Source of the DNA: a virus | Lineage: Duplodnaviria; Caudoviricetes | Strand: one strand, 5' to 3' | Virus record (IMG/VR): IMGVR_UViG_3300044695_006401 | DNA: 64,000 nucleotides | In this document: positions 27,145-48,322 of the stretch, one piece after another | How the letters are laid out: each line of letters opens with the position of its first letter | Position numbering within the stretch: position 1 is the first letter of the stretch | Translations under genes and position numbers: made by a program | Notes under the pieces: generated by a model | Seen by the model: only the letters and a program-made list of their open reading frames with translations | What the model was told of the DNA's origin: nothing | Databases searched by the model: none

Positions 27145-28971
27145 TTATCTCAATTCTCTTAAGTCAAATGTTCTAACTCCATCAACTGTGATTCTACCAT
27201 AGAAACGGTTGTTAACCATTTTCTTAGCGTATCTTGTCATGATACCTTTGATTGGTGTAAAGTTGAATGGGTTATACATTGTAGGTGTTAATTGTAGAGG
27301 TACATACGGTGCGTAAACATAACCAGTGTCTAACAATGATGTTCCTTTGTGACCCAACAATACTGTGTTTGGTGGGAAGTAAGGATCACGGTAAACTTGG
27401 TAACGACCAGCTAATGTACCAACTCTTTCAATACCCATGTTGTATTGATCTTGCTCCGGTGAAGCGTTAGATACATGGAAGTATTCTAAGTCATCAAAAA
27501 TAGCTGAAATTTCAGAAGAAACTACGATCCAGTTAGCTCCACCTCTCAAAGTAGATTTGTGGATTTGTGCCGAAATTTGGTTAATCGCAGTGATTAATGT
27601 TTGGTTCCAGTCTTTTTGAGTGTACTGAGTTAATGGATTTGCAGTAGTACCTCTTTTCCATCCGTTGTAATCCCAACGAAGTGTCCAAGCTGCGCCTTTT
27701 CTCAAATCACGAAGAATTTCACGATCAATTTCTGCCGCCACTTGCTCAGATAATAAAGCTGTTAATTCAGCTTCAGCATCGATATTGTGGAATGCAGATA
27801 CATCTTGAGCTAATTCAGGAGACCATTGTGCTCTTAGTTTTCTTTCTGTAACAGATACAGTAACTGACTCAAGGTCAAAAGATACTTCACCGATCTCATC
27901 TTCGAATTCCAATTCTTTGTATCTTCTGAATGTACATGTAAACGCAGCTCCTGCAGTGGCAAGACCAGTAATTGGTAAAGTGAACCCTGAATATCCGTCA
28001 ATTGAACCTGTACCGATAGTTGCAGGAACTTGTAGATCCAACTCTAAATAGATGATACCATCTTGTGAACAAAGGTTATCATAAGAACCTCCGTTACCTG
28101 TAGATGACCAAGTTGTATTTGCTTGTGTACCATATTGTACAATACCTTTACCATATTTTTGAGTAACAACTCTGAAAAGAATATCACTAGTACCTAAACC
28201 TGAGAAACCATTAACACCCGCTTGTACAGCATTTACTTGTAAGTCAGATAAGAATGCTTCATTATCCATTTCCTGACCATCAGGTCCAATTAATTTACCA
28301 GCACCCGCATTAGAGAAACCTGATAAACCGATTAATACTTTTCTGTACTCACCTGCTGAATAACCAGAAGACACTAAATTGTAACCATTCCAAACTACAG
28401 TGCCAACAGCACTTGAAGTAATTGCCGTATAAGCTCCTTTTGAATAGTCAAATAAACCTGCAGGATCTAATCCTGGCTCATTTCCTTCATAGAATAAGTC
28501 ATACAAGTTAGTACCACCGTATGTACTAGTTGATCCGTAACCTTGTCCTTGAGTTGCAGTAGCATCACCTACTAAAGTAGCGGGTGAACCAAGTGGTGGA
28601 AAGTGTTGTATTTGGTTATTAGCTGCCGCTTGGTAACCTTGGATTTTAGGTACAAAGTAGAACAATTTACCGATAGGTAAGTTCATTGCTTGTACAGATA
28701 CTAAATCATTAGCTAACAATTTAGAGAATACGCGTCTTACGATAGGGAAAACTACAGTTTCGAATGAACCTGAGCTATCAGTTGAAGCCGCTTCGTTAAT
28801 AAGGTGAGATGCTTGGTTCTCATATAATTGAGCCATGTTCTCTTTAATGTGTCCTTTAAGACCATCTAGGAATCCTAATTTATCCCATTTGTTAATTGTA
28901 TCTTCTTTGATAACTTTAAGGTGTTTCAACCCGATGTTACCAACAAGACCTGATTCTAATAATGCTCCCAT
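27145..28971 (-). CDS. gp23: major capsid protein (T4 gp23-like) with a large internal insertion
   Basis: LVSVQAMNLPIGKLFY, RKLRAQWSPELAQDVSAFHNIDAEAELTALLSEQVAAEIDREI, YAPYVPL, GIMTRY. Confidence 0.95.
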   Translation of the reverse strand: MGALLESGLVGNIGLKHLKVIKEDTINKWDKLGFLDGLKGHIKENMAQLYENQASHLINEAASTDSSGSFETVVFPIVRRVFSKLLANDLVSVQAMNLPIGKLFYFVPKIQGYQAAANNQIQHFPPLGSPATLVGDATATQGQGYGSTSTYGGTNLYDLFYEGNEPGLDPAGLFDYSKGAYTAITSSAVGTVVWNGYNLVSSGYSAGEYRKVLIGLSGFSNAGAGKLIGPDGQEMDNEAFLSDLQVNAVQAGVNGFSGLGTSDILFRVVTQKYGKGIVQYGTQANTTWSSTGNGGSYDNLCSQDGIIYLELDLQVPATIGTGSIDGYSGFTLPITGLATAGAAFTCTFRRYKELEFEDEIGEVSFDLESVTVSVTERKLRAQWSPELAQDVSAFHNIDAEAELTALLSEQVAAEIDREILRDLRKGAAWTLRWDYNGWKRGTTANPLTQYTQKDWNQTLITAINQISAQIHKSTLRGGANWIVVSSEISAIFDDLEYFHVSNASPEQDQYNMGIERVGTLAGRYQVYRDPYFPPNTVLLGHKGTSLLDTGYVYAPYVPLQLTPTMYNPFNFTPIKGIMTRYAKKMVNNRFYGRITVDGVRTFDLRELR

Positions 28972-30909: not shown

Positions 30910-31617
30910 TTATTTTAAATAATCGGTCAATCTTTTCATTAAGTCAACAGATTTCTCTAAACCACTACCTGAAAAATTACTTTTATCATGTTCGGCAAGT
31001 TTTTCTTCATACTTTGGTCGGTCTTCCTTGTTTAAGTAAAGGTAAGCTCCTGGCGTTGACGGTGAAGAAACAAGATCAAAACAAATTAATTCAAAATCAT
31101 CCTGTACTTCATTTTGCTCACCTTTTTTTACCAAAGAACCAACACCACGAGAAGATACACCCATAGTAACACCCTGTCTCATCATGTTTGCTGCAACATC
31201 TCCTTTGGATGACACTATACCTCTTTCGTGAAAACCTGGAGTGGTTAATAATTTAATCTTACCCATTAAAACATTGTTTTCCCACCATATGTCAGTAATA
31301 AGATGTGATACTCTATCTAAGTCAATTAATGAAGACTCAGGATGGTTTAATTCAGAAATCGACATCCCTTTATTAATAAGTTCTTTATACTTATCAGCCT
31401 CTCTTCTTAATATGTTTTCAGGATAAACCCTACCGTTTCTGTTAGGTACTCCGTGTTTTTGTAATGTCGCATAGAACACAAAAGGTTTTGAGTGTTCTAA
31501 CTGTCCGTAAGATTCTTTTATTATATCGGTATTTCTCTCATCATTTGGATTGATGAATCCAGCATCCCATTCTACAAGTATTCCTTTACCACTATCATTC
31601 GGTCCTAAAATTTTCAT
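30910..31617 (-). CDS. gp21: prohead core protease (T4 gp21-like, S77)
   Basis: NRNGRVYP, ELNHP (catalytic His), GVSSRGVGS (catalytic Ser), FDLVSSPSTPGAY. Confidence 0.93.
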   Translation of the reverse strand: MKILGPNDSGKGILVEWDAGFINPNDERNTDIIKESYGQLEHSKPFVFYATLQKHGVPNRNGRVYPENILRREADKYKELINKGMSISELNHPESSLIDLDRVSHLITDIWWENNVLMGKIKLLTTPGFHERGIVSSKGDVAANMMRQGVTMGVSSRGVGSLVKKGEQNEVQDDFELICFDLVSSPSTPGAYLYLNKEDRPKYEEKLAEHDKSNFSGSGLEKSVDLMKRLTDYLK

Positions 31618-33364: not shown

Positions 33365-35185
33365 TTACTTATTCAATAAAGATTTAACTCTTTCATCTAT
33401 TTCAATCAACGAGTTTCTTCCTTTAGATAATTCTATAACATCTGCAGAATTAAATAATGACAAATCTTCCAATATTAAATCTAATCCATCTTTATTAAAA
33501 CTTTCAGGTGTTACCCCTCCAGGTTCAGGTGATGGTGAGCCTTCAGGTGGTGGTGGGGCTCCTCCGCCTAAATCTCCACCTCCCATATCCATATCACCTC
33601 CTTCAGGTGCCGCACCTCCTTCAGGTGTTGCTTCACCATCTTTTTTACCGTAAAGTTGGTCTATAGTATCAAAAAGTCCGGTTTTAGGTATACTCTCAGC
33701 AGTTTTTACAAGTTCTGCAGCCACTGCCCTTTCTACCCTTTGTTGTTGTATATCTAATCTTATTTCTTCATCTGAGAACCCTAAGATATGTTTTTTAGCC
33801 CAAGACGCTGAAACAGGGGCTACTGTGTCTGCGATAGGTGTAACTGCATCTTTATACAGAAGTATTTTTTCCTTCCATAGTTCGATTGAAAGTAATTCAG
33901 ATTGTTTAGATGGATTGTGTAAACCTAATGTGAAGTTTGTTAATTCGTCTTCAAAACCTAATAAAAAAAGATGAATAATTGCAATTTTATTTAATTCTGC
34001 AATCATAGACTTTTGAATTCTATTGATAGTTCTCGCAAAACGAATATCTAATAATGATAAATTTTTACCATCACCTACCGCCTCTTCGAATCCTAAATAA
34101 GCCTTAGGTATTCTAAGAGCTGTAACTAATTTCTTTTGAATATACTCAATGTCTGCGATTTCAGCTAAGTTCGTACCACCTGGTAATGTTTCAATAGGGT
34201 TGGTTGCTGCCGGATCACGAACAGGAATGAAATAATCTTGGTCTACCGCCATTTGATTATACCTCATATCGACATTACCTGTTGAGTGATCAACAATTTG
34301 ATCTCTTTTAAATTTATTAGCAACTCTTTGTACATATGGGTCAACATCTTTGTCGTCCATGTTACCGACAAATACTTTAAATACTCTTCTTTCAGGTGCT
34401 CTAGATACACGATAGATTAACATCGCATCTTCAGAAAGTAATAATTGTTTCCAAATTCTACGAGCCTTTTCGAGCATCGATGTACCATACGGTAGTTTTC
34501 TATCGTCACCTAAAATTCTAAAGTGTGCTACTTCCCAAGTATTGAACTCCATGTTTTTTTCCTTCCAAGTAAACTTCAAAGCGTCGTTTTCCATTTCTTG
34601 TGAGTACTTATCAGGTTGAAACCTCATCCCTTTTTCTAATCTTTCGATTTGAATGTTTGGTAGTTGTTGACATCCAACAATACCATTTTCAGGATCTAAC
34701 TTAAGATATACAAAGTTGTCACCAAACTTACATGTGTTTCTTGTCCACATTGGTAAGTTGGTGTTAATATCCAATTTATTAACAAAAAGATCGATTAATA
34801 CTGATTTTATTCTTTTTGATTCAGAATAAACTTTTAATATAAGTCCATCTTGATCTGGTGTTGTGGATTCTTCAGAATAAATGTCTAATGCCGCAGAAAT
34901 TTCAGGTGTATATTCCATAGATTCATAATCATAGTATGACGCCATTCTTGTTGGTTCATAATATACCGCTTGTTGGTATAAATTATTTTCTACTTTTTGC
35001 CATTGTTGGCCGATATACATTGTCTGCTGAGATTGTAATTTTTCTTTTTCAAACTCAGATTTATCTGTTGTCTTTAATAGCTCCTTTTTATCAAATTTGA
35101 ATACGGGAGATTGTTGGTCAAGGGTTGCATTAGGACCAAAAGTCCTACTCAATCTTTGCCACACCGTTAATTTTTGTTCTGACAT
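33365..35185 (-). CDS. gp20: portal protein (T4 gp20-like)
   Basis: YTPEISAALDIY, PYGTSMLEKARRIWKQL, EDAMLIYRVSRAPERRVF, IETLPGG, KLVTALRIP. Confidence 0.95.
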   Translation of the reverse strand: MSEQKLTVWQRLSRTFGPNATLDQQSPVFKFDKKELLKTTDKSEFEKEKLQSQQTMYIGQQWQKVENNLYQQAVYYEPTRMASYYDYESMEYTPEISAALDIYSEESTTPDQDGLILKVYSESKRIKSVLIDLFVNKLDINTNLPMWTRNTCKFGDNFVYLKLDPENGIVGCQQLPNIQIERLEKGMRFQPDKYSQEMENDALKFTWKEKNMEFNTWEVAHFRILGDDRKLPYGTSMLEKARRIWKQLLLSEDAMLIYRVSRAPERRVFKVFVGNMDDKDVDPYVQRVANKFKRDQIVDHSTGNVDMRYNQMAVDQDYFIPVRDPAATNPIETLPGGTNLAEIADIEYIQKKLVTALRIPKAYLGFEEAVGDGKNLSLLDIRFARTINRIQKSMIAELNKIAIIHLFLLGFEDELTNFTLGLHNPSKQSELLSIELWKEKILLYKDAVTPIADTVAPVSASWAKKHILGFSDEEIRLDIQQQRVERAVAAELVKTAESIPKTGLFDTIDQLYGKKDGEATPEGGAAPEGGDMDMGGGDLGGGAPPPPEGSPSPEPGGVTPESFNKDGLDLILEDLSLFNSADVIELSKGRNSLIEIDERVKSLLNK

Positions 35186-35222: not shown

Positions 35223-36998
35223 CTAAACCCTTTTACCACTGAATAACCATAAATACTTTTCATAATCACTTTTAGTGACCGTGTTTCTCTGATATCCTGT
35301 TTGATCTCTCTGTGATACTGGTAAACTTGGATTAAAACTTGTATACTCTTTATGATAAGTATTACTTTCTACTGACCAAGAATCTAACATTGCCTTTGTT
35401 TGTTCTGTTACTTTTTCTAATTGGGCAAAAGATGTTTCAGCAACATAAATTGCTATTGCAAATGACATTATCAAGTCATCATGTTGTCCTTTTTGGTGAT
35501 CAGGTCTACCGTTTACATAAACGAATGTATTCAATTCATTAAATAACCTTTGTGATCTGACAACAAAATCATACCTTAAAGCTTCCTCAAATGATTGAAT
35601 AATTAGAACTCGTTTTGCGTTAAAATTAATACCAGGAATTTTATCATTAGCCTTTGGGTCCCACTTCCATTTATCTGCAGGGTTTACCCCATCAACATAT
35701 AAATTTTTATATCCAAGTTCTTGTAATTTTCTTGATGTTGACACTCCCATCCCTCCTGTTATATCAGTCACGATAAGGGAACCATACATAGTTCCCCACT
35801 TGAAAGCAATTTCTGCTAAAACATCGGGTGGGATTTTTCCAATATATTCTAAAACTTGTTCTCTTGAGTCAAAATCAATGATTGATATAGTACTAAAATC
35901 TTCACTATCTCCTCTTGATACATCGACACCCATAATATATTTATGACCAACAATAGGTTCTTTCCATTGCCAAAGTGCACCTCCCATAAATTTATTAACA
36001 GGTTCTTGGATGTGGTTTTCTTTTATTTTTTTCATCGTTTCAGGTGGGATAACATTGTCACCCGAACCTAAAAAATTACATTCTAATTCTTGAGAAATTT
36101 TTCTTTTGTCAAACTTTAACTTTTTGGCCATAGCCTCAAACCAAGAACTATACGGTTTGTAACCTTTATTAATTTTTTCCTTTATTTCTTCAAAGTCTCT
36201 ATTAATTACTTTGACTTCAGTATAGTCTAGTATGATTTCAGAATCATTATAATCCGCCCTATTCAACATATAGTGAACAATATCATCACACTTAATTAAT
36301 TTCAGATCCTTAGAATATCTAGGATCTCGAAACCAATACATTTCTGTTATTTTAAAGTCATTCATTCCTTTTATCGCCTGACTGTAAATTGAATAATATA
36401 TTGGATCAAATCCATTTGGTGTTGATATTACTATAACTTTACCTCCTGTAGATAGGGATGCCATACACGCTGACCAGAAATCTTCGTCCGCATTAATATA
36501 TGCTGCCTCATCAAAGATTAAGATCGTAGGTGTATACCCACGCAAAGCATCCTTAGATGTTGCAACTGCCTTTACTTCACATCCGTTAGTTAATTTAAAA
36601 TGTCTTTGTGAATTTTTTTCGTTAGAGAATGTTACACCTAACCAATTTGGCCACTGTTCAACAAAAGCTCTCACTTTATTTGCCATCTCTACAGCGGTGT
36701 CCATTTTATTTGCAATAATCAATATTTTTTCTGGTTTTGATTTTTTAGCAAATACTAACCTTTTAGATGCCCATGCGGATGTAACGGTTGAAACACCGGC
36801 TTGTCGGTATTTAAGTGCGATATTTTCTTCACACTCGTCATAATCTTTAACAAGTGTAACCTGATCATTAAAAAGTTCTAATGGAACATATTTGGACTGT
36901 GTGTTGTCGTAAGTTTGTAAATATGTTTTTAAGGCGTAAGGTGTATCATTTACACACTTAGCATACTCTAATAATATTTGTTCTTTCGATAACGACAT
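35223..36998 (-). CDS. gp17: terminase large subunit (T4 gp17-like)
   Basis: KYRQAGVST Walker A, LIFDEAA Walker B, VISTPNG, QELEC, GVDVSRG, HDDLIMSFAI. Confidence 0.95.
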   Translation of the reverse strand: MSLSKEQILLEYAKCVNDTPYALKTYLQTYDNTQSKYVPLELFNDQVTLVKDYDECEENIALKYRQAGVSTVTSAWASKRLVFAKKSKPEKILIIANKMDTAVEMANKVRAFVEQWPNWLGVTFSNEKNSQRHFKLTNGCEVKAVATSKDALRGYTPTILIFDEAAYINADEDFWSACMASLSTGGKVIVISTPNGFDPIYYSIYSQAIKGMNDFKITEMYWFRDPRYSKDLKLIKCDDIVHYMLNRADYNDSEIILDYTEVKVINRDFEEIKEKINKGYKPYSSWFEAMAKKLKFDKRKISQELECNFLGSGDNVIPPETMKKIKENHIQEPVNKFMGGALWQWKEPIVGHKYIMGVDVSRGDSEDFSTISIIDFDSREQVLEYIGKIPPDVLAEIAFKWGTMYGSLIVTDITGGMGVSTSRKLQELGYKNLYVDGVNPADKWKWDPKANDKIPGINFNAKRVLIIQSFEEALRYDFVVRSQRLFNELNTFVYVNGRPDHQKGQHDDLIMSFAIAIYVAETSFAQLEKVTEQTKAMLDSWSVESNTYHKEYTSFNPSLPVSQRDQTGYQRNTVTKSDYEKYLWLFSGKRV

Positions 36999-40267: not shown

Positions 40268-40516
40268 TTAATTATCTAATTTTTTATATTTGAATGTTCT
40301 TGATATTTGAGAATTGAAAAATTTTCCTTGGGATTCTGACAATCTAAATTGAGCAAAGATGTTGTGCGGAACATCTTCATATTCATATCTTAAACCGTTT
40401 TTAAATGTAGTTATTAACTTTTTTGATTCTGTATCATACTCGGTTTTTACCAAGTTAGAAGATTCGATTTCACAAACAATTCTTGTGCCTTCTATGTCAG
40501 TTCTTTTTATTGCCAT
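40268..40516 (-). CDS. KTSC-domain protein
   Basis: SSNLVKTEYD...LITTFKNGLRYEYEDVP...F..SESQGKFFNSQI. Confidence 0.88.
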   Translation of the reverse strand: MAIKRTDIEGTRIVCEIESSNLVKTEYDTESKKLITTFKNGLRYEYEDVPHNIFAQFRLSESQGKFFNSQISRTFKYKKLDN

Positions 40517-40811
40517 CTGGTTCTCTTAATGGGGTTATGTCATCTATATGACTAAGTTTATCCATAATATAATAATGAACTTCGTCTCTGTCAACATCAA
40601 AACCATAATCCTTAATTGTTTGAAAAATCTCACGCATTTTTGGTTGGAATTCGGAGTGCAATTTTAATAAGTCTTGGGGGAAGTATCTTGGACTTGCCAA
40701 CTCTTCTTGTGTCCACCCTTCTCTTTGAAATATTTTTCTCATGTCAAAATAATTCTGTTCTAAATCTTTTGTCAATTCCAAAGTATCCACGAATTTTCTC
40801 CAAGCTTTCAT
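40497..40811 (-). CDS. hypothetical protein
   Basis: 104 aa; late motif at 40816-40822, 4 nt upstream; overlaps the KTSC start. Confidence 0.7.
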   Translation of the reverse strand: MKAWRKFVDTLELTKDLEQNYFDMRKIFQREGWTQEELASPRYFPQDLLKLHSEFQPKMREIFQTIKDYGFDVDRDEVHYYIMDKLSHIDDITPLREPDGNKKN

Positions 40812-40836: not shown

Positions 40837-40867
40837 TTGATTATTATTTAACTTATGTTTAATTTTG
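40837..40867 (+). promoter_or_regulatory. Bacteroidota primary-sigma promoter for clpC
   Basis: TTG(40837-40839)-N20-TAATTTTG(40860-40867). Confidence 0.6.
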
Positions 40868-40883
40868 AGTCAAATTAGAAGTT

Positions 40884-42920
40884 ATGATAGAATCCGTAGA
40901 CGAAAACGAAAAACCAAAAAACAAACCTAAAGATAGTTCCTCAAAAACCCCCGTATTAGATAATTTCTCAAGAGATCTAATTAAGGCGGCAGAAGAAGGG
41001 AAGTTGGACCCTGTGATAGGGAGAGAAAACGAGATCAATAGGATTGCTCAAATTTTATCAAGGAGAAAGAAAAACAATCCAATTATTTTAGGGGAACCGG
41101 GTTGTGGTAAAACTGCAATTGTTGAGGGACTTGCAAAAAAGATTTTTGAAGGTGATTGTCCTCAAAATTTAGCAAACAAAAGAATAGTATCGTTAGATAT
41201 GACATCAGTTGTGGCAGGGACAAAATATAGAGGTCAGTTTGAAGAGAGGATGAAGGTTATAATGGAAGAATTATATGGAAATCCCGATATTATAATTTTT
41301 ATTGATGAAATACATACTATGATTGGTGCTGGTAATTCATCAGGTTCTATGGATGCGTCAAACATATTTAAACCCGCACTTTCAAGAGGGGAACTTCAAT
41401 GTATTGGGGCGACAACTTTAGACGAATACAGAAAAAATATTGAGAAGGATGGGGCATTAGAAAGAAGATTCCAAAAAGTTATTGTTGACGCATCAACAAA
41501 AGAAGAAACATTACTAATTCTTCAACAATCCAAAGAAAGTTATGAAAATTACCACAAAGTAATTTATAGTGATGATATTATGAAACTTTGTGTGGAGTTA
41601 GCCGATAGATATATTACTGATCGTGAATTTCCAGATAAGGCATTTGATATTATTGATGAGGTTGGGGCAAGATCTCAAGTGGAAGTAAAACTTCCTGAAA
41701 TTATTGAGGACTTGAAAAAAGAAGCTTTGAAAATCAAAGAAGAAAAGTTAGATGTCATCAACAAACAAAAGTATGAGGAGGCGGCTAATTTACGAGACAA
41801 AGAAAGAAAAGTTCTTGCCGAATTAGAAAATGAGAAACAAAAATTCGAAAAGAATCGTGACATGTTTAAAAGAGAAGTGACTGAAGATGTCGTTTATGAT
41901 GTAGTTTCTTTAATGACAAAAATTCCTGTGAATAAAATATCTACAGATGAAACACAACAACTTATTTCTTTAAAAGAAAATTTGAACACAAAAGTTATTG
42001 GTCAGGATGATGCTGTAAGTAAAATAGCAAGGGCAATTCAGAGAAATAAAGTTGGTTTAAACGATCCGAAAAAACCTATTTTCAGTGGTCTGTTAATTGG
42101 TAATTCGGGAGTCGGGAAAACAGAACTCGCAAAACAATTGGCAAAACATATGTTTAACAGTGAAGACGCTTTAATCCGTTTAGACATGAGTGAGTTTTCA
42201 GATAAAATTTCAACATCCAAATTGACGGGAACATCACCAGGTTATGTGGGGTTTGAAGAGGGCTCACCATTTTTGAATAAAATCAAAAACAAGCCATACT
42301 CTGTAATTCTATTAGATGAAATAGAAAAGGCACATTCCGATATATTCAATGTTTTTTTACAGATGTTGGATGAGGGTATGTTAACAGACGGTCATGGGAG
42401 AAAAATAAATTTTAAAAATTGTATTATTCTAATGACTTCTAATGTGGGAACTAAGGTTGTACAAGATTTTGGGACGGGTGTCGGTTTTTCAACAACGGCA
42501 AAAACTGAAAGAAAAGACGATGAGATCAAAACACTTTTGGAAAAAGAGCTATTCAAAAAATTCCCGCCTGAGTTTATCAATAGATTTGATGATATAGTTT
42601 ATTTCAAAGACCTTAATAAAGAGGATTTGTTAAAAATTGTTGATTTAGAACTTAATAAATTCTACGAAAGAATTTCTAAGTTAGAGTTTTCTGTAGATGT
42701 CGATGAGACACTAAAAAAACATCTAATAGAAGTCGGAATGGATACTCGTTTTGGGGCTAGAATACTTAAAAGAACCGTACAGAAATGGATTGATGATGCA
42801 ATCACTGAAAAAATCCTTACAGATAACCCAGAAAAAGGATCAAAGTTTGTTCTTACTTATAACGAGAAGGAAAAGAAAACTGATGTTAAAATAAAAAAAC
42901 CAATTAAAAGAAAAAAATAA
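40884..42920 (+). CDS. clpC: ClpC-type AAA+ unfoldase lacking the Clp_N domain
   Basis: Two NBDs ([14 protein letters not shown]; [17 protein letters not shown]), pore loops KYRG and GYVG, short UVR-type M domain ([13 protein letters not shown]), ClpP-docking VGF loop; NBD1 begins about 20 aa after the start. Confidence 0.9.
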
Positions 42921-42921
42921 T

Positions 42922-42952
42922 TTTGCAAATGTTAAAAACTTTTGTACATTTG
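42922..42952 (+). promoter_or_regulatory. Bacteroidota primary-sigma promoter
   Basis: TTTG(42922-42925)-N19-TACATTTG(42945-42952). Confidence 0.75.
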
Positions 42953-42965
42953 TAAAAAAACAGCA

Positions 42966-44018
42966 ATGAACATAGAAAAATTTAAAGAGCTCCTTTCAGT
43001 CCCAAGCAAGACATATCAAGAAGAAGATATGGTAGAGTTTATTTGTGACGAGTTGGGGGATATGGAAGGGGTTACTTTCTATCGTGATGTAATGATGAAC
43101 ATCTACGCGACAAAAGGTGTGTTAGAGGAAGGTGAATTTTACCCTATGTTTATTGCTCACACAGATACAGTACACAGTAAGATTGAAAAAATAGTAGTTA
43201 AAGAAGAAAAACTTGCTCGACCTTACACTTTTGGTAAATCCTTTGACAACACACCAGTTGATGTATTAAAGGCTTATGACACTAACGGTAACCCAACAGG
43301 TATTGGTGGTGATGACAAGTGTGGTATTTTTATTTGTTTAGAGTTACTAAAACAATTAGACAAAGTAAAAATTGGTTTTTTTGTTTCAGAAGAAACAGGA
43401 TGTCACGGTTCATCAAAATGTGATGAAAACTTTTTACAGAATGTTGGTTATATCACTCAATATGACGCACCTGGTAATCACTTAATTACCGAGATTTGCT
43501 CGGGAGTTCGTTTGTTTGAAAGGGAGAGTGAGTTCTTTGAAAAAACATTAGAAGTTATTACGGAATCTTTTGGTAATGAAATGTTAGTTCAATCTCACCC
43601 TTACACCGACATTTCACAACTAAAAAAGAAAATCAATGTTTCTTGCATTAACATGTCTTGTGGTTATTACAATATGCACTCAGTTCAAGAGTTTGTATCC
43701 TTAGACGATGTAAAAAATGCGATTGAAGCAGGAAAGAAGATGGTTGCAGTATTGGGACTTAAAAAATACACATACGAATATGCTCCTATCAAATATACTC
43801 CTCAATTAATAATGAATTCACTTGTGGAAGATTTAGATGAAGAAGTTTTTGATTACCCTGAAGAAACTTTTCATCGTTTAGGGAGTATAGACGCATATGA
43901 AGAAAAAGATGGTATCACATTAAGTGACGCTTATGACGATGGATTTTTATTTATCCCCGATGAGGATTTAGTAAGTCTTTATGAAATTATTAAAGAAAGA
44001 TTGATTAAAAAGTATTAA
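42966..44018 (+). CDS. M28/M20-like zinc metallopeptidase
   Basis: AHTDTVH, GGDDKCG, SEETG, QYD, GYYNMH. The track start at 42942 lies in the promoter; ATG 42966 preferred. Confidence 0.82.
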   Translation: MNIEKFKELLSVPSKTYQEEDMVEFICDELGDMEGVTFYRDVMMNIYATKGVLEEGEFYPMFIAHTDTVHSKIEKIVVKEEKLARPYTFGKSFDNTPVDVLKAYDTNGNPTGIGGDDKCGIFICLELLKQLDKVKIGFFVSEETGCHGSSKCDENFLQNVGYITQYDAPGNHLITEICSGVRLFERESEFFEKTLEVITESFGNEMLVQSHPYTDISQLKKKINVSCINMSCGYYNMHSVQEFVSLDDVKNAIEAGKKMVAVLGLKKYTYEYAPIKYTPQLIMNSLVEDLDEEVFDYPEETFHRLGSIDAYEEKDGITLSDAYDDGFLFIPDEDLVSLYEIIKERLIKKY

Positions 44019-45163
44019 TCAATATAAGGAACAATCGGTGGAGTTTCCAACATATCCAAGATACGACGTAATGGGGCGGACCCTTTTTTAAATGGTTCTC
44101 CCCATGTGTTTCCTTTACGTAAACCATAATTAACCATTAAAGTGTCACTATCAACATCAAATATTCTAATTTCATATCCTCCTGGAATTTTTTTACTACG
44201 ATTAAATCCTATTTTTTCATTTAGTGTGTTTAAAATTTGAAAATATTTTTTCATTTTTTCTTCTCCACCCTCTTGAACCATATCGTCTAACTCTTCCATT
44301 AAACTTTCTAAATCTCTAATACTTCTTTTATTAAATTCTTCGTAAAATACATCTCTGTTCCAAGCTTCGTATTGAATTTCATAATATTCTGAAGCGTGGT
44401 TTGTAACTTCTTTTTCTATTGCTTTAAACATTATATCCAGCAAACAATCTTCGGGAGTTCCGTATCTTACAAATAACATAATGGCGTCACCCCAACTTAA
44501 AAAATATTTCCAATAACAATTTTTTGATTGATTTTCAATACCAATAACAGATAAAGAATTACAATATATTTCATCAATATATCTTGGCACTTCCGCATCC
44601 GTTGCTCTATCATTTGCATATGCATAAGCCTCTATTAAATCATCCTTTGTTCTGCTACTTACAGATTCAATAAAATCACATATTTTATCCGTTTCTTTAC
44701 CATCTTTCCACTTAACGTGATTATCAATAACCTCAAAAGAATTTAATAAGTGTGGTTGATATTTTTTTAATATCTCATATAAAAGTTTTAATGGATCACC
44801 GTTTATTGATTCAATTATATACCCATCATTCCAATCTTCACTTGCTCTATCCCAAGTATCCCATTCCCATTGACCTCTACGCATAGAATCAAGATATCCC
44901 GCTTCATACCAAGCATCTGAACCTTCATCACCATAAGTTTCTTTGAAAAAAAATCTTAGGTATTCTTCTAATCCATCATGGAAAGTGAAAGTTATACCAT
45001 CATAACCTACTTCATAATAGTCTGAATAATCAGTACCATCACACCCATCAAAATCAGTTTCATATGGGTCAATCTTTCTTTTATTTAAAGCAAGAATTTT
45101 TTCGTAGTCGGTTAATTCTATCTCATCTTCGTCTTGTTCAAAAATATCTAATATTTTTCGCAT
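44015..45163 (-). CDS. acidic hypothetical protein
   Basis: 382 aa, D/E/Y/W-rich; tandem TATTTAT motifs 2 and 6 nt upstream. Confidence 0.8.
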   Translation of the reverse strand: MRKILDIFEQDEDEIELTDYEKILALNKRKIDPYETDFDGCDGTDYSDYYEVGYDGITFTFHDGLEEYLRFFFKETYGDEGSDAWYEAGYLDSMRRGQWEWDTWDRASEDWNDGYIIESINGDPLKLLYEILKKYQPHLLNSFEVIDNHVKWKDGKETDKICDFIESVSSRTKDDLIEAYAYANDRATDAEVPRYIDEIYCNSLSVIGIENQSKNCYWKYFLSWGDAIMLFVRYGTPEDCLLDIMFKAIEKEVTNHASEYYEIQYEAWNRDVFYEEFNKRSIRDLESLMEELDDMVQEGGEEKMKKYFQILNTLNEKIGFNRSKKIPGGYEIRIFDVDSDTLMVNYGLRKGNTWGEPFKKGSAPLRRILDMLETPPIVPYID

Positions 45164-45252
45164 ATATAAATAAATATATTATTAACAACATATATTAAAA
45201 AAAAATATTATATTTGTATCTAATCTCAACATTCTAAAACCCCATTTTAACC

Positions 45253-45693
45253 ATGCAAAAATTTTCTATAACTCTATTAATTTTTTTATCATCTTTTTTT
45301 TCAATTTCACAAGTTATTACGGTTGAATTTGAAAAAACTAAATTTTTTATTTCTGAAGGTAGAATATCACCAAAGGATTTATTACTCGATACCTCCTCGA
45401 TGTATGCAAGTGAGCCAAGTAAGTATAAAAAAGTTTTTGATTTAGATAGTAATATTTGTAAATTTTATATTAATGATTCTCTTCAGAGTTCTTTAAGTAT
45501 AACCAAAGTCGAAAAGATTGAAGGAAGTTTAATTAAATTAACCTTTATTGAAAAAGATTTAAGAGACGGATTCCCTCTAGTTACCCATCAATTTGTAAGT
45601 GATACAATATGTTATTATTATTGGTATTGGGGAGGTCAGGATAACTTATCTAATTTAATTTTAGAAGAGGTAAGTAGTATATCTATAAAATAA
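45253..45693 (+). CDS. predicted exported protein (SPI signal peptide)
   Basis: MQKFSITLLIFLSSFFSIS|Q; upstream TATATTTG (45209-45216). Confidence 0.7.
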   Translation: MQKFSITLLIFLSSFFSISQVITVEFEKTKFFISEGRISPKDLLLDTSSMYASEPSKYKKVFDLDSNICKFYINDSLQSSLSITKVEKIEGSLIKLTFIEKDLRDGFPLVTHQFVSDTICYYYWYWGGQDNLSNLILEEVSSISIK

Positions 45694-45720
45694 AAAAAGG
45701 TGGGTATACCCACCTTTTTT
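45693..45720. terminator. bidirectional terminator
   Basis: Perfect palindrome AAAAAAGGTGGG-TATA-CCCACCTTTTTT between convergent genes. Confidence 0.88.
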
Positions 45721-45740
45721 ATTAAATTAATTTAAAGTCT

Positions 45741-46094
45741 TTAACAATCGGATTTAAGGGTCCCCTTCCAATTAGGGTGATTTAAAGTTAGTTGAGAAAC
45801 CACCATGGAAGAAATAGGTTGATTACTTTCATCCACTATCTGACCAGTTTTACATGAATAAGTATAATCTTTTCCACTTCTATCATTTATCCATCCTAAA
45901 TCTTGACTCCACTGTTTTAAATCAAACCCGACTCCGTCGGCACCATTGTTTCCAGTATTAGCAATACGCATTCCTTTTCTATTTTTTTCCGCAGCTACAG
46001 AATATTGCGCCCAATCCATCACTTCTTGTTCGTTGATTACTCTGGATACGATTCTTTTCAAGTCACTTTCAGTTAATCTTACAATTTTACTCAT
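45741..46094 (-). CDS. protein with conserved KIVRLTESDL...RVINE leader (putative internal head protein)
   Basis: N-terminus MSKIVRLTESDLKRIVSRVINEQ, shared with 47282..47755. Confidence 0.7.
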   Translation of the reverse strand: MSKIVRLTESDLKRIVSRVINEQEVMDWAQYSVAAEKNRKGMRIANTGNNGADGVGFDLKQWSQDLGWINDRSGKDYTYSCKTGQIVDESNQPISSMVVSQLTLNHPNWKGTLKSDC

Positions 46095-46166
46095 AATTAA
46101 TATTTTAATATAATTTTATTTACTATATTCTATAAGTATATTGTTTTAAGTAAAAAAATTAATTAA

Positions 46167-46198
46167 TTTGATTTTTTAGGATATAATATTTATATTTG
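46167..46198 (+). promoter_or_regulatory. Bacteroidota primary-sigma promoter for the tmRNA
   Basis: TTTG(46167-46170)-N20-TATATTTG(46191-46198). Confidence 0.75.
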
Positions 46199-46234
46199 TA
46201 TTATTATTCTTTGAAGTAGTCAATTAAGATATAT

Positions 46235-46652
46235 GGGCCTATATTGGATTTGACGGGCGTTGGTTGAATAAAAGAAGCATGTCGGGACTGAATTAATCTC
46301 GTTAAAAACTGATTCGAACAACAACTGGCAATGTGCTAAACAACCTTGAGACTTTGGGACTTATCTCAACTCAAGAAGTTACTGTAGCTTAATTTAAGTA
46401 CGGAAACGGGGGGTCGGTGGATACATAACCTAGCAACAGAAATCCTTAAGGTGTGGTTTCTACCCAAAAAGAAACAAACGGTCTCGTTCAGAGGTCTACC
46501 GTAACAAAAGTGAACTCGACACAGTTTTTGGTAACGATGTTAAAATAGGAACCAAATATTTTGGAAGGTATGAAAAACCTTATCCTAAACATGTAGTTGT
46601 CTCTTAGACAAGACGAGCCGGACGAGGGAGTCGGAGCCCTCTAGGTCCACCA
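46235..46652 (+). ncRNA. ssrA: tmRNA (SsrA), 418 nt
   Basis: 5' GGGCCTATATTGGATTTGAC; acceptor stem GGGCCTA/TAGGTCC with a G3.U wobble, discriminator A and encoded CCA; helix-2 GCATGT/ACATGT; T-stem GAGGG/CCCTC after GGAC; tag ORF at 46327-46392 after ACAACT. Confidence 0.92.
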
Positions 46653-46656
46653 ATTA

Positions 46657-46691
46657 ATCCCATCATTTAATTATGGTGGGATATTTTTTTT
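46657..46691 (+). terminator. Rho-independent terminator after the tmRNA
   Basis: ATCCCATCAT/ATGGTGGGAT stem followed by ATTTTTTTT. Confidence 0.8.
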
Positions 46692-46710
46692 AAAATATTT
46701 TTAAAAGTGT

Positions 46711-47830: not shown

Positions 47831-48322
47831 ATGCAAACTTTTCTTCCATATACTGATTTCAGAAAGTCTTTAGAGTCTTTAGACAACAAGCGCTTAGGAA
47901 AACAAAGAGTAGAAGCATATCAAATAATTTCAGCAATAACAGGTCGCACTAGAAAAGATGGTAAACCATATAAGGGTTGGTTAAATCACCCATGTTCTGT
48001 TATGTGGAAAGATTATGTAAACGCGTTAAAACAATACTATAATGATAGTATTGATGTATGGGTTTCTCGTGGATTTAAAAACACAATGGAACACGAACAA
48101 ATTGAAGGTGAGTTTGTTTTACCTCATTGGTTGGGTATGGAAGAATTTCACACTTCACATAGATCAAATCTATTAAGAAAAGATTCTGAGTATTATTCTA
48201 AACATGGGTGGACTGAGGACCCTAACGATCCATATGTATGGATGGATTCTAATGGTGAATGGTACAAACAAATGGTAGGTTCAAAAGAACGAGTATATTT
48301 TAGTGTTGGTGTTCTTGTATAG
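47831..48322 (+). CDS. pyrimidine dimer DNA glycosylase-like protein (DenV/MSMEG_6728-like)
   Basis: MQTFLPY...LDNKRLGKQRVEAYQI...HP...W...SHRSNLLRKD. Confidence 0.8.
   Translation: MQTFLPYTDFRKSLESLDNKRLGKQRVEAYQIISAITGRTRKDGKPYKGWLNHPCSVMWKDYVNALKQYYNDSIDVWVSRGFKNTMEHEQIEGEFVLPHWLGMEEFHTSHRSNLLRKDSEYYSKHGWTEDPNDPYVWMDSNGEWYKQMVGSKERVYFSVGVLV

Follow-up and report, generated by a model that had tools for sequence, protein, structure and literature searches.

Can a phage bend the protein quality control of its host by bringing its own unfoldase, peptidase and ribosome-rescue RNA? The question is raised by IMGVR_UViG_3300044695_006401, a stretch of 64,000 nucleotides of viral DNA (Duplodnaviria; Caudoviricetes) that is called below, at its full length, the window, and whose source is best explained as a freshwater T4-like jumbo phage of Bacteroidota. 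Three genes of the window lie within 5.8 kb, all on the plus strand. This agrees with an initial annotation made from the sequence alone, which had placed a ClpC without N-domain, a peptidase and a transfer-messenger RNA (tmRNA) within 6 kb on one strand. The three genes are:

40884-42920, plus strand: N-domain-less, ClpC-type double-ring AAA+ unfoldase, 678 amino acids (Pfam, phmmer, conserved motifs)
42966-44018, plus strand: clan-MH (M20/M42-like) co-catalytic metallo-aminopeptidase, 350 amino acids (Pfam, ligands, fold)
46235-46652, plus strand: tmRNA whose acceptor stem has G3:U70 and whose CCA is encoded (Rfam RF00023)

The earlier observation is confirmed, and the interpretation attached to it, a module for ribosome rescue and proteolysis, is partly supported. 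To the view that three separately transcribed auxiliary genes jointly take over host protein quality control we give even chances.

A ClpC without N-domain that keeps the ClpP-docking loop

The Pfam domains of the phage unfoldase are AAA (residues 68-187), AAA_lid_9 (206-306), AAA_2 (397-571) and ClpB_D2-small (577-654); Clp_N (PF02861) was not found in it by Pfam. With phmmer, residues 11-669 align in one piece to residues 149-806 of Staphylococcus aureus ClpC (6em9; E 1.6e-199), and an uninterrupted alignment is also obtained with residues 154-800 of Bacillus subtilis ClpC. The longer M-domain of ClpB and Hsp104 breaks their alignments into two pieces. In the phage protein, a short coiled-coil M-domain of the ClpC type (a type with a UVR-like motif) lies between D1 and D2, inside the uninterrupted S. 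aureus alignment. The NCBIfam equivalog scores stay below their cut-offs (ClpA, 667 against 993 bits; ClpB, 758 against 1232 bits), and that library gave no ClpC equivalog match.

Walker A and B motifs are intact in both rings, as are the pore loops KYRG and, in D2, GYVG. The ClpP-docking loop VGF, at residues 533-535, faces AGF of S. aureus ClpC, and Tyr297 occupies the position of S. aureus F436 in the M-domain. All four kinds of motif (Walker, pore-loop, M-domain, ClpP-loop) are kept across 91 distinct phage sequences, and the docking tripeptide reads [VIM]-G-F in 90 of them, with sequences down to ~50% identity. The sole exception is LR756501, a match that was excluded: it is ClpB-like, has an N-domain and is without VGF. 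At the F436 position, every phage ClpC variant listed has an aromatic Tyr. Pfam, phmmer and the 91-sequence alignment therefore bear out the initial description of a ClpC with intact Walker motifs, pore loops, M domain and VGF loop and no Clp_N.

No N-domain is hidden upstream, since the intergenic gap to the divergent neighbouring gene is 72 nt; the open frame extends into it by just a few codons. The close homologues listed all measure 678-683 amino acids and are all without Clp_N. Near-complete relatives stood in for the whole genome in searches for absent genes, and Clp_N was not found in the whole records of four relatives searched (two of them near-complete, estimated at 99% and 96%) nor in that of LR745206. 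The N-domain is also missing from the more distantly related ClpCs of two huge phages, LR745206 and LR756508. These sequence comparisons support the view that loss of the N-domain is ancestral and fixed in the lineage. The nearest representatives outside it are mostly full-length ClpCs of 800-870 amino acids (45-54% identity), and the closest cellular homologue found, the best species-representative match, is a full-length, 868-amino-acid ClpC of Flavobacteriales (55% identity). The most likely history of the gene would be capture from a Flavobacteriales-like host, followed by loss of the N-domain.

In several relatives (loci L059, L060-L064, L067 and L074) an insertion of 0.47-1.7 kb splits the ClpC gene behind GEPG, exactly at the codons of the D1 Walker A motif; examples are L060:10243-10723 and L059:8316-10001. 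The insertion opens with C-V-L-G-D-T-W, which is intein-like. Stops or a shift of frame interrupt the copies examined, so it may be an intron or a degenerate intein. In the uninterrupted GEPGCGKT, the Cys is unusual and might be what is left of the +1 nucleophile.

The probable ClpP partner

The window holds neither clpP nor smpB, as the initial annotation had stated: tblastn for clpP gave a best E of 2.1, and no SmpB was found among the small open reading frames (ORFs) scanned with Pfam. Nor was clpP found in three near-complete relatives (estimated 99, 96 and 100% complete). Genuine clpP genes are present in three fragments from a sister clade (~190-198 bits, with the catalytic Ser, His and Asp aligned). 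In the sister clade (L081:427-924 and L081:1366-2040), clpP follows an HNH endonuclease gene next to a region rich in tRNAs, and its distance to the tmRNA is ~20 kb.

Because the docking loop is kept under selection in genomes without clpP, host ClpP is indicated as the partner. That ClpC acts as a protease-coupled unfoldase, using host ClpP in most genomes, is among the conclusions that we hold most firmly, as a prediction from the conserved motifs.

When the phage protein is set beside the ClpC-ClpP systems of Firmicutes (S. aureus, B. subtilis; PMC12583610; Carroni et al. 2017, PMC5699869), it is found to be collinear from the N-M linker to the C-terminus, and it begins almost exactly where the laboratory deltaN-ClpC construct begins. 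In Firmicutes the N-domain is the binding site of MecA, McsB and phospho-arginine and keeps the resting state stable, whereas the phage ClpC is naturally without it. Further differences of the phage protein are Tyr for Phe at the M-domain contact, a Cys in Walker A of D1, a C-terminal tail rich in Lys, and its source, a phage of Bacteroidota whose genomes mostly have no clpP. In S. aureus, deltaN-ClpC assembles into planar hexamers and needs no MecA to bind ClpP; it is the pore that reads the SsrA degron, and not the N-domain, whose part is that of a selectivity barrier (Jenne et al. 2025, PMC12583610). By analogy, the phage ClpC would presumably be independent of adaptors.

A tmRNA with a long, phage-specific tag

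The tmRNA that the initial annotation had reported is matched by Rfam RF00023 at full length (model positions 1-374) with 71.5 bits, against a gathering score of 47; its relatives score 95-102 bits. ARAGORN finds no tmRNA in the window, and it detects 8 of the 38 distinct relatives' tmRNAs, with a wrong, late tag start. Its miss was rejected as evidence against the tmRNA, since Rfam, covariation and codon patterns agree. Two variants of the acceptor stem, GGGGGTG/CACCTCC and GGGCCTA/TAGGTCC, occur among the 38 relatives, both fully paired and with G3:U70 kept. We conclude from these sequence features that the tmRNA is functional.

The tag is encoded as follows:

46327-46392, plus strand: tag reading frame of 21 codons (GNVLNNLETLGLISTQEVTVA) and TAA, starting with GGC at nt 93 of the RNA

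The frame has 21 or 22 codons in all 38 relatives and is always closed by a stop, with the consensus G-N-V-L-[ND]-N-L-[ES]-[TV]-[LV]-G-L-I-[SA]-T-[QE]-[EQ]-V-T-V-A. The invariant residues V3, L4, G11, L12 and V18 use three to four synonymous codons, which argues that the tag is under selection at the level of the peptide. That the tag is translated is supported as well. Two shorter alternatives, a +1 frame encoding AMC-stop and the ATEQVTVA proposed by ARAGORN at nt 132-134, were rejected because conservation of the peptide begins at the GGC of nt 93, where host tags start.

For comparison, 50 tmRNAs were sampled from the phylum of the Flavobacteriales genome, and ARAGORN read 49 tags. These host tmRNAs belong to the same RNA family and share with the phage tmRNA the Ala identity elements and a Gly resume codon, GGC, near nt 93 (the start of the host tags ranges over nt 84-103). 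The tags themselves differ. All 49 host tags are 8-15 amino acids long and end in [LM]AA, as YA[LM]AA or RLAA, while the phage tag has 21 amino acids and ends in VTVA; with every sampled host tag short and ending in this way, the phage tag was not copied from a host tag. No donor can be named, as a BLAST search of the tmRNA against 401 Bacteroidota genomes gave no match. That the tmRNA adds a phage-specific tag is, like the coupling of ClpC to ClpP, a prediction of which we are most confident. Its reliance on host SmpB is assumed; smpB was not found in four relatives searched (two near-complete) either.

Metatranscriptome contigs from four runs in four studies, some of them identical to the window, map inside 46245-46621 only and never in the flanks. 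Such contigs, which cannot prove RNA ends and were mapped for the tmRNA alone, are a hint that the RNA accumulates in nature.

Several further observations concern variation of the tmRNA gene. The tRNA-like domain occurs in two types, one in which GGGGGTG goes with a canonical TTCGA T-loop and one in which GGGCCTA goes with AGTCGGAG, a loop of 8 nt, and the tag in two alleles, NNLETL..STQE and DNLSVV..ATEQ. All four combinations of domain and allele are seen among the 38 relatives, which implies recombination inside the gene. The 3' CCA is not encoded in many relatives' copies. Some relatives have a second, partial copy of the tmRNA 3' end at 0.5-2.3 kb downstream of the complete gene (L001:15247-15372; L010:17007-17093; L073:15054-15140), a pattern left by integration of DNA into a tmRNA 3' end, here inside a phage genome. 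In the tmRNA of one relative (L054:16307-16519), an internal deletion brings profile positions 1-130 almost directly up to 334-413, with the later pseudoknots lost and the start of the tag region kept. The 484-kb huge phage LR756508 (locus L085) has a tmRNA at LR756508.1:92434-92880, with an apparent frame of ~36 codons ending in PAAV that was read by eye from the AACT-GGC context; ARAGORN proposes a different short tag there. L130 is a different phage contig that shares no proteins with the window and ends in a tmRNA preceded by three tRNA genes. Long tags without LAA may be common among phage tmRNAs.

The peptidase belongs to clan MH

The peptidase frame is real, and its likely start is ATG 42966 rather than TTG 42942. 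The initial annotation had called the product M28-like. The assignment to clan MH stands, on M42 and M20 matches, metal ligands and fold, but the M28 profile (PF04389) gave no match to the window peptidase and appears only on some look-alike clusters. The Pfam scores are just above their cut-offs (M42, 26.4 against 23.2 bits; M20, 25.5 against 24.6), and the protein matches phrog_4191, 'peptidase', with 130 bits. Residues H65, D67, D116, E142, E143, D167 and H238 are invariant in 27 sequences, down to 49% identity; from motifs and spacing, the H-x-D, GDD, EE, D and H so conserved would be the five metal ligands and the catalytic Glu.

No PDB match was obtained by sequence. An AF2 model (pLDDT 81) was matched by Foldseek to peptidase T (PepT, 3gb0; E 1e-11, TM 0.57, probability 1.0) and to M42 TET enzymes (TM ~0.5, probability 1.0). 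With M42 TET aminopeptidases and M20B peptidase T, the phage enzyme shares the fold and the co-catalytic metal site at 14-18% identity. It differs from them in that a short insert stands at the place of the M42 dimerisation domain and there is no M20 lid domain. An acidic C-terminal extension of ~85 amino acids forms an extra domain in this clade (the sister clade is without it), and the family is mostly viral, unlike M42 TET and PepT.

Three transcription units

Promoters were scored with a strict Bacteroidota pattern, TTTG-N17-21-TAnnTTTG. Transcription signals and interleaved genes are listed below:

40860-40867, plus strand: -7 type box TAATTTTG before ClpC, with no strict -33 TTTG at consensus spacing
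42922-42952, plus strand: Bacteroidota-type promoter of the peptidase (TTTG-N19-TACATTTG), immediately downstream of the ClpC stop
44015-45163, minus strand: orphan gene, 382 amino acids, with a late-type TATTTAT motif just before its ATG
45253-45693, plus strand, and 45741-46094, minus strand: small ORFs between the orphan gene and the tmRNA, present in this phage
46167-46198, plus strand: Bacteroidota-type promoter for the tmRNA (strict pattern match)
46657-46692, plus strand: intrinsic terminator, a hairpin (46657-46682) and a T-run, 5 nt past the CCA end

The claim that each of the three genes lies behind a Bacteroidota -33/-7 promoter stood for the peptidase and the tmRNA, which match the strict pattern, and not for ClpC, which has a -7 box only. 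The strict pattern is not enriched across the window (5 found against 4.5 expected); three of the five lie in intergenic DNA just ahead of genes in the cluster stretch. Among 71 distinct relatives, 63 have the TAnnTTTG box ahead of the tmRNA, at 26-49 nt before the mature 5' end.

ClpC, peptidase and tmRNA are separate transcription units and not an operon, because they have separate promoters, because a convergent late gene and a bidirectional terminator (45693-45720) lie among them, and because the peptidase of the sister clade is inverted. The late motif is also found on the gene to the left of ClpC (40497-40811, minus strand), and ClpC itself has the host-type -7 box. We also predict an early timing of expression.

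The orphan protein is conserved in the lineage and evolves fast (22-91% identity), and its AlphaFold model has a pLDDT of 91. A role akin to that of SmpB or of an adaptor was looked for and found no support; Pfam, PHROG and NCBIfam gave no match. Its fold found no convincing match in the PDB, in the AFDB clusters (Foldseek) or in the ESM Atlas, and the best match VIA-wide was helical, with Z 6.0. The gene is probably outside the pathway. In relatives, ~70-100 nt lie between the orphan gene and the start of the tmRNA.

Linkage inside the lineage

In essentially every locus of the lineage that reaches far enough, the genes follow one another as ClpC, variable insert, peptidase, orphan gene, tmRNA. 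A separate set of loci was fetched by the tmRNA pattern, with ClpC ignored, and scored where at least 3.5 kb upstream was available. In 49 of these 50 loci, the tmRNA has the peptidase at 1.1-2.4 kb and ClpC at 2-5 kb on its upstream side; the set includes the sister clade, where ClpC is 50-66% identical. Locus L129 was rejected as a tmRNA locus without ClpC, its ClpC 3' end being cut by the locus edge.

Source and neighbourhood

The window is AT-rich (~31% G+C). A T4-type head and packaging module, recognised by PHROG matches and all on the minus strand, adjoins the cluster on the left:

27145-28971, minus strand: major head protein
30910-31617, minus strand: head maturation protease
33365-35185, minus strand: portal
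35223-36998, minus strand: large terminase

The assignment to Bacteroidota agrees with the promoters of Bacteroidota type, with the Gly resume codon of the tmRNA and with a Flavobacteriales ClpC as the closest cellular homologue found. In IMG/VR, the ClpC has at least 196 relatives, on contigs of up to 304 kb. The exact 5.8-kb stretch was found in 20 lake-water metagenome runs, and the sequencing-run search listed no RNA run that contains it whole. The phage lineage is common in lakes.

To the right of the cluster, a DenV-like pyrimidine-dimer DNA glycosylase is encoded at 47831-48322 on the plus strand (Pfam Pyr_excise, 77 bits); it is syntenic in most relatives. Between 60001 and 64000, the G+C content rises from ~0.31 to 0.47-0.53, with a strong negative AT skew and a very long minus-strand open frame.

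How the three genes may act, and how else they can be read

In the reading to which we give even chances, the N-less ClpC would dock through its VGF loop onto host ClpP in most genomes and, in one subclade, onto a ClpP that the phage encodes. Lacking the gate that the N-domain provides, it would feed proteins into ClpP with no need of a host adaptor, and the clan-MH aminopeptidase would trim the resulting peptides, plausibly to amino acids. The tmRNA, charged by host alanyl-tRNA synthetase and working with host SmpB, would free ribosomes that stall in infection and would add a phage-specific tag of 21 residues without the [LM]AA end that ClpX reads. That tagged proteins are then handed over to the phage ClpC is plausible as a mechanism, its key step having an experimental precedent, but it is a doubtful idea, which draws here on linkage inside one lineage.

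A number of observations weigh against joint action of the three genes. Synteny has no discriminating power, because the unrelated left-hand neighbours are equally syntenic, and the parts are separated by an opposite-strand late gene and by variable inserts of 1.5-7 kb; the initial annotation had already called the linkage loose, with genes interleaved, and the separate promoters add to this. The co-occurrence across phages on which it had made its proposal depend was seen inside the lineage, in the 49 of 50 tmRNA-retrieved loci, but outside it the components occur apart, which counts in part against the proposal. The peptidase family is common in small podophages (Klebsiella, Vibrio, Cellulophaga) without either partner. 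A homologous Clp ATPase occurs in six cultured jumbo phages in which no tmRNA scores above the Rfam cut-off; there it lies among tail genes or after dnaJ. LR745206 has an N-less ClpC and two clpP genes and no tmRNA; in LR756508, ClpC and tmRNA are both present, ~360 kb apart. The related tmRNA at L130:13336-13564 encodes a 21-amino-acid tag of the same pattern (GNVYKNMEIAGILATSNVAVA), and no ClpC or peptidase was found within 13 kb upstream. As to the unfoldase itself, its proposed independence of adaptors agrees with the ClpP binding of the published deltaN-ClpC, but that construct alone degraded no substrates, and GFP-SsrA was degraded only when F436 was mutated as well (PMC12583610). The phage ClpC keeps an aromatic Tyr at the very contact that must be broken for proteolysis, and its compatibility with Bacteroidota ClpP is presumed.

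A narrower explanation sees in the 21-residue tag a degron specific to the N-less ClpC, so that products of stalled ribosomes would go to phage ClpC and ClpP, bypassing host ClpXP, with the peptidase recycling what is left. The tag is unlike all 49 sampled host tags and appears to be under selection as a peptide, and ClpC lies close upstream of the tmRNA in nearly every locus retrieved. SsrA-type degrons are read by the Hsp100 pore, and removal of the N-domain opens ClpC to them (PMC12583610). Linked genes would be co-inherited anyway, however; long tags without LAA also occur in phages without an adjacent ClpC (phage G, with LQVA; LR756508; L130), and seven other phage genomes have a Clp ATPase without tmRNA. 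As recognition of the tag by the phage ClpC is argued from analogy, we regard such a dedicated channel as doubtful. A tag of this kind would have a parallel in Mycoplasma, where, as Gur and Sauer reportedly found in 2008, the tag was lengthened when its specificity switched to Lon. In its fullest form, with a degron ignored by host ClpXP and read only by the N-less phage ClpC on host ClpP, and with host proteins converted to amino acids with the help of the aminopeptidase, the idea is rather unlikely.

The three genes might also be unrelated neighbours. ClpC would then be a chaperone or disaggregase independent of ClpP, serving for instance virion assembly, while the tmRNA would only rescue ribosomes and the peptidase would have a separate task. 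The company kept by homologous ATPases in Rak2-like, PA5oct-like and Atu_ph07 phages (tail and structural genes, or dnaJ directly upstream) fits this explanation, as do the head and packaging module that abuts the cluster, the own promoter of each gene and the independent distribution of the components elsewhere. Yet the ClpP-docking tripeptide, which is missing in ClpB-type disaggregases, is invariant down to ~50% identity, one subclade has acquired a genuine clpP, and ClpC has a host-type -7 box while the flanking minus-strand genes (40497-40811 and 44015-45163) have the late motif. We consider unrelated function decidedly unlikely. Highly improbable is the view that the tmRNA is a non-functional relic, such as a captured integration site, with a fortuitous tag frame. 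The failure of ARAGORN, the non-canonical T-loop of the window copy and the partial 3' duplicates of some relatives might be cited in its favour, but they are set against a full-length Rfam match, compensatory changes in the acceptor stem that keep G3:U70, synonymous-only variation at invariant tag residues, a conserved promoter and terminator, and RNA-library contigs confined to the body of the gene.

Relation to known systems and significance

Both tmRNAs and Clp ATPases are already known from phages. Double-ring Clp ATPases are also found in cultured jumbo phages (121Q gp581, K64-1 gp078, Serratia BF, PA5oct-like MIJ3, Atu_ph07), with 36-41% identity over residues 25-650. The comparison was made by identity and gene context, and these ATPases differ from the window ClpC in lying among tail or structural genes or after dnaJ, with no tmRNA over the cut-off. 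Phage-borne tmRNAs are likewise known from huge phages (Al-Shayeb et al. 2020, PMC7162821) and from phage G (PMC12484599). In phage G, the tmRNA co-occurs with ClpX and ClpP, and its tag ends in LQVA, that is, in VA and not in LAA. The window phage differs from these phages in its lineage-conserved tag of 21 residues, in an N-less ClpC in place of ClpX, in having no smpB and in the proximity of the genes. An adaptor-like protein of phage SPO1 modulates B. subtilis ClpCP (PMC6873191), which is likewise a case of a phage reprogramming a host Clp protease; SPO1 supplies an adaptor for host ClpC, whereas the window phage would supply the unfoldase itself.

The biological interest of the locus is twofold. 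Deletion or drugging of the ClpC N-domain deregulates ClpC/ClpP and is toxic to bacteria. If the reading proposed here is true, the phage ClpC would be a natural and widespread example of a virus that seizes a host protease by means of a deregulated unfoldase. Moreover, a tag that has moved away from the host degron, encoded beside a ClpC, would offer a concrete and cheap test of whether phages rewire ribosome rescue to proteolysis.

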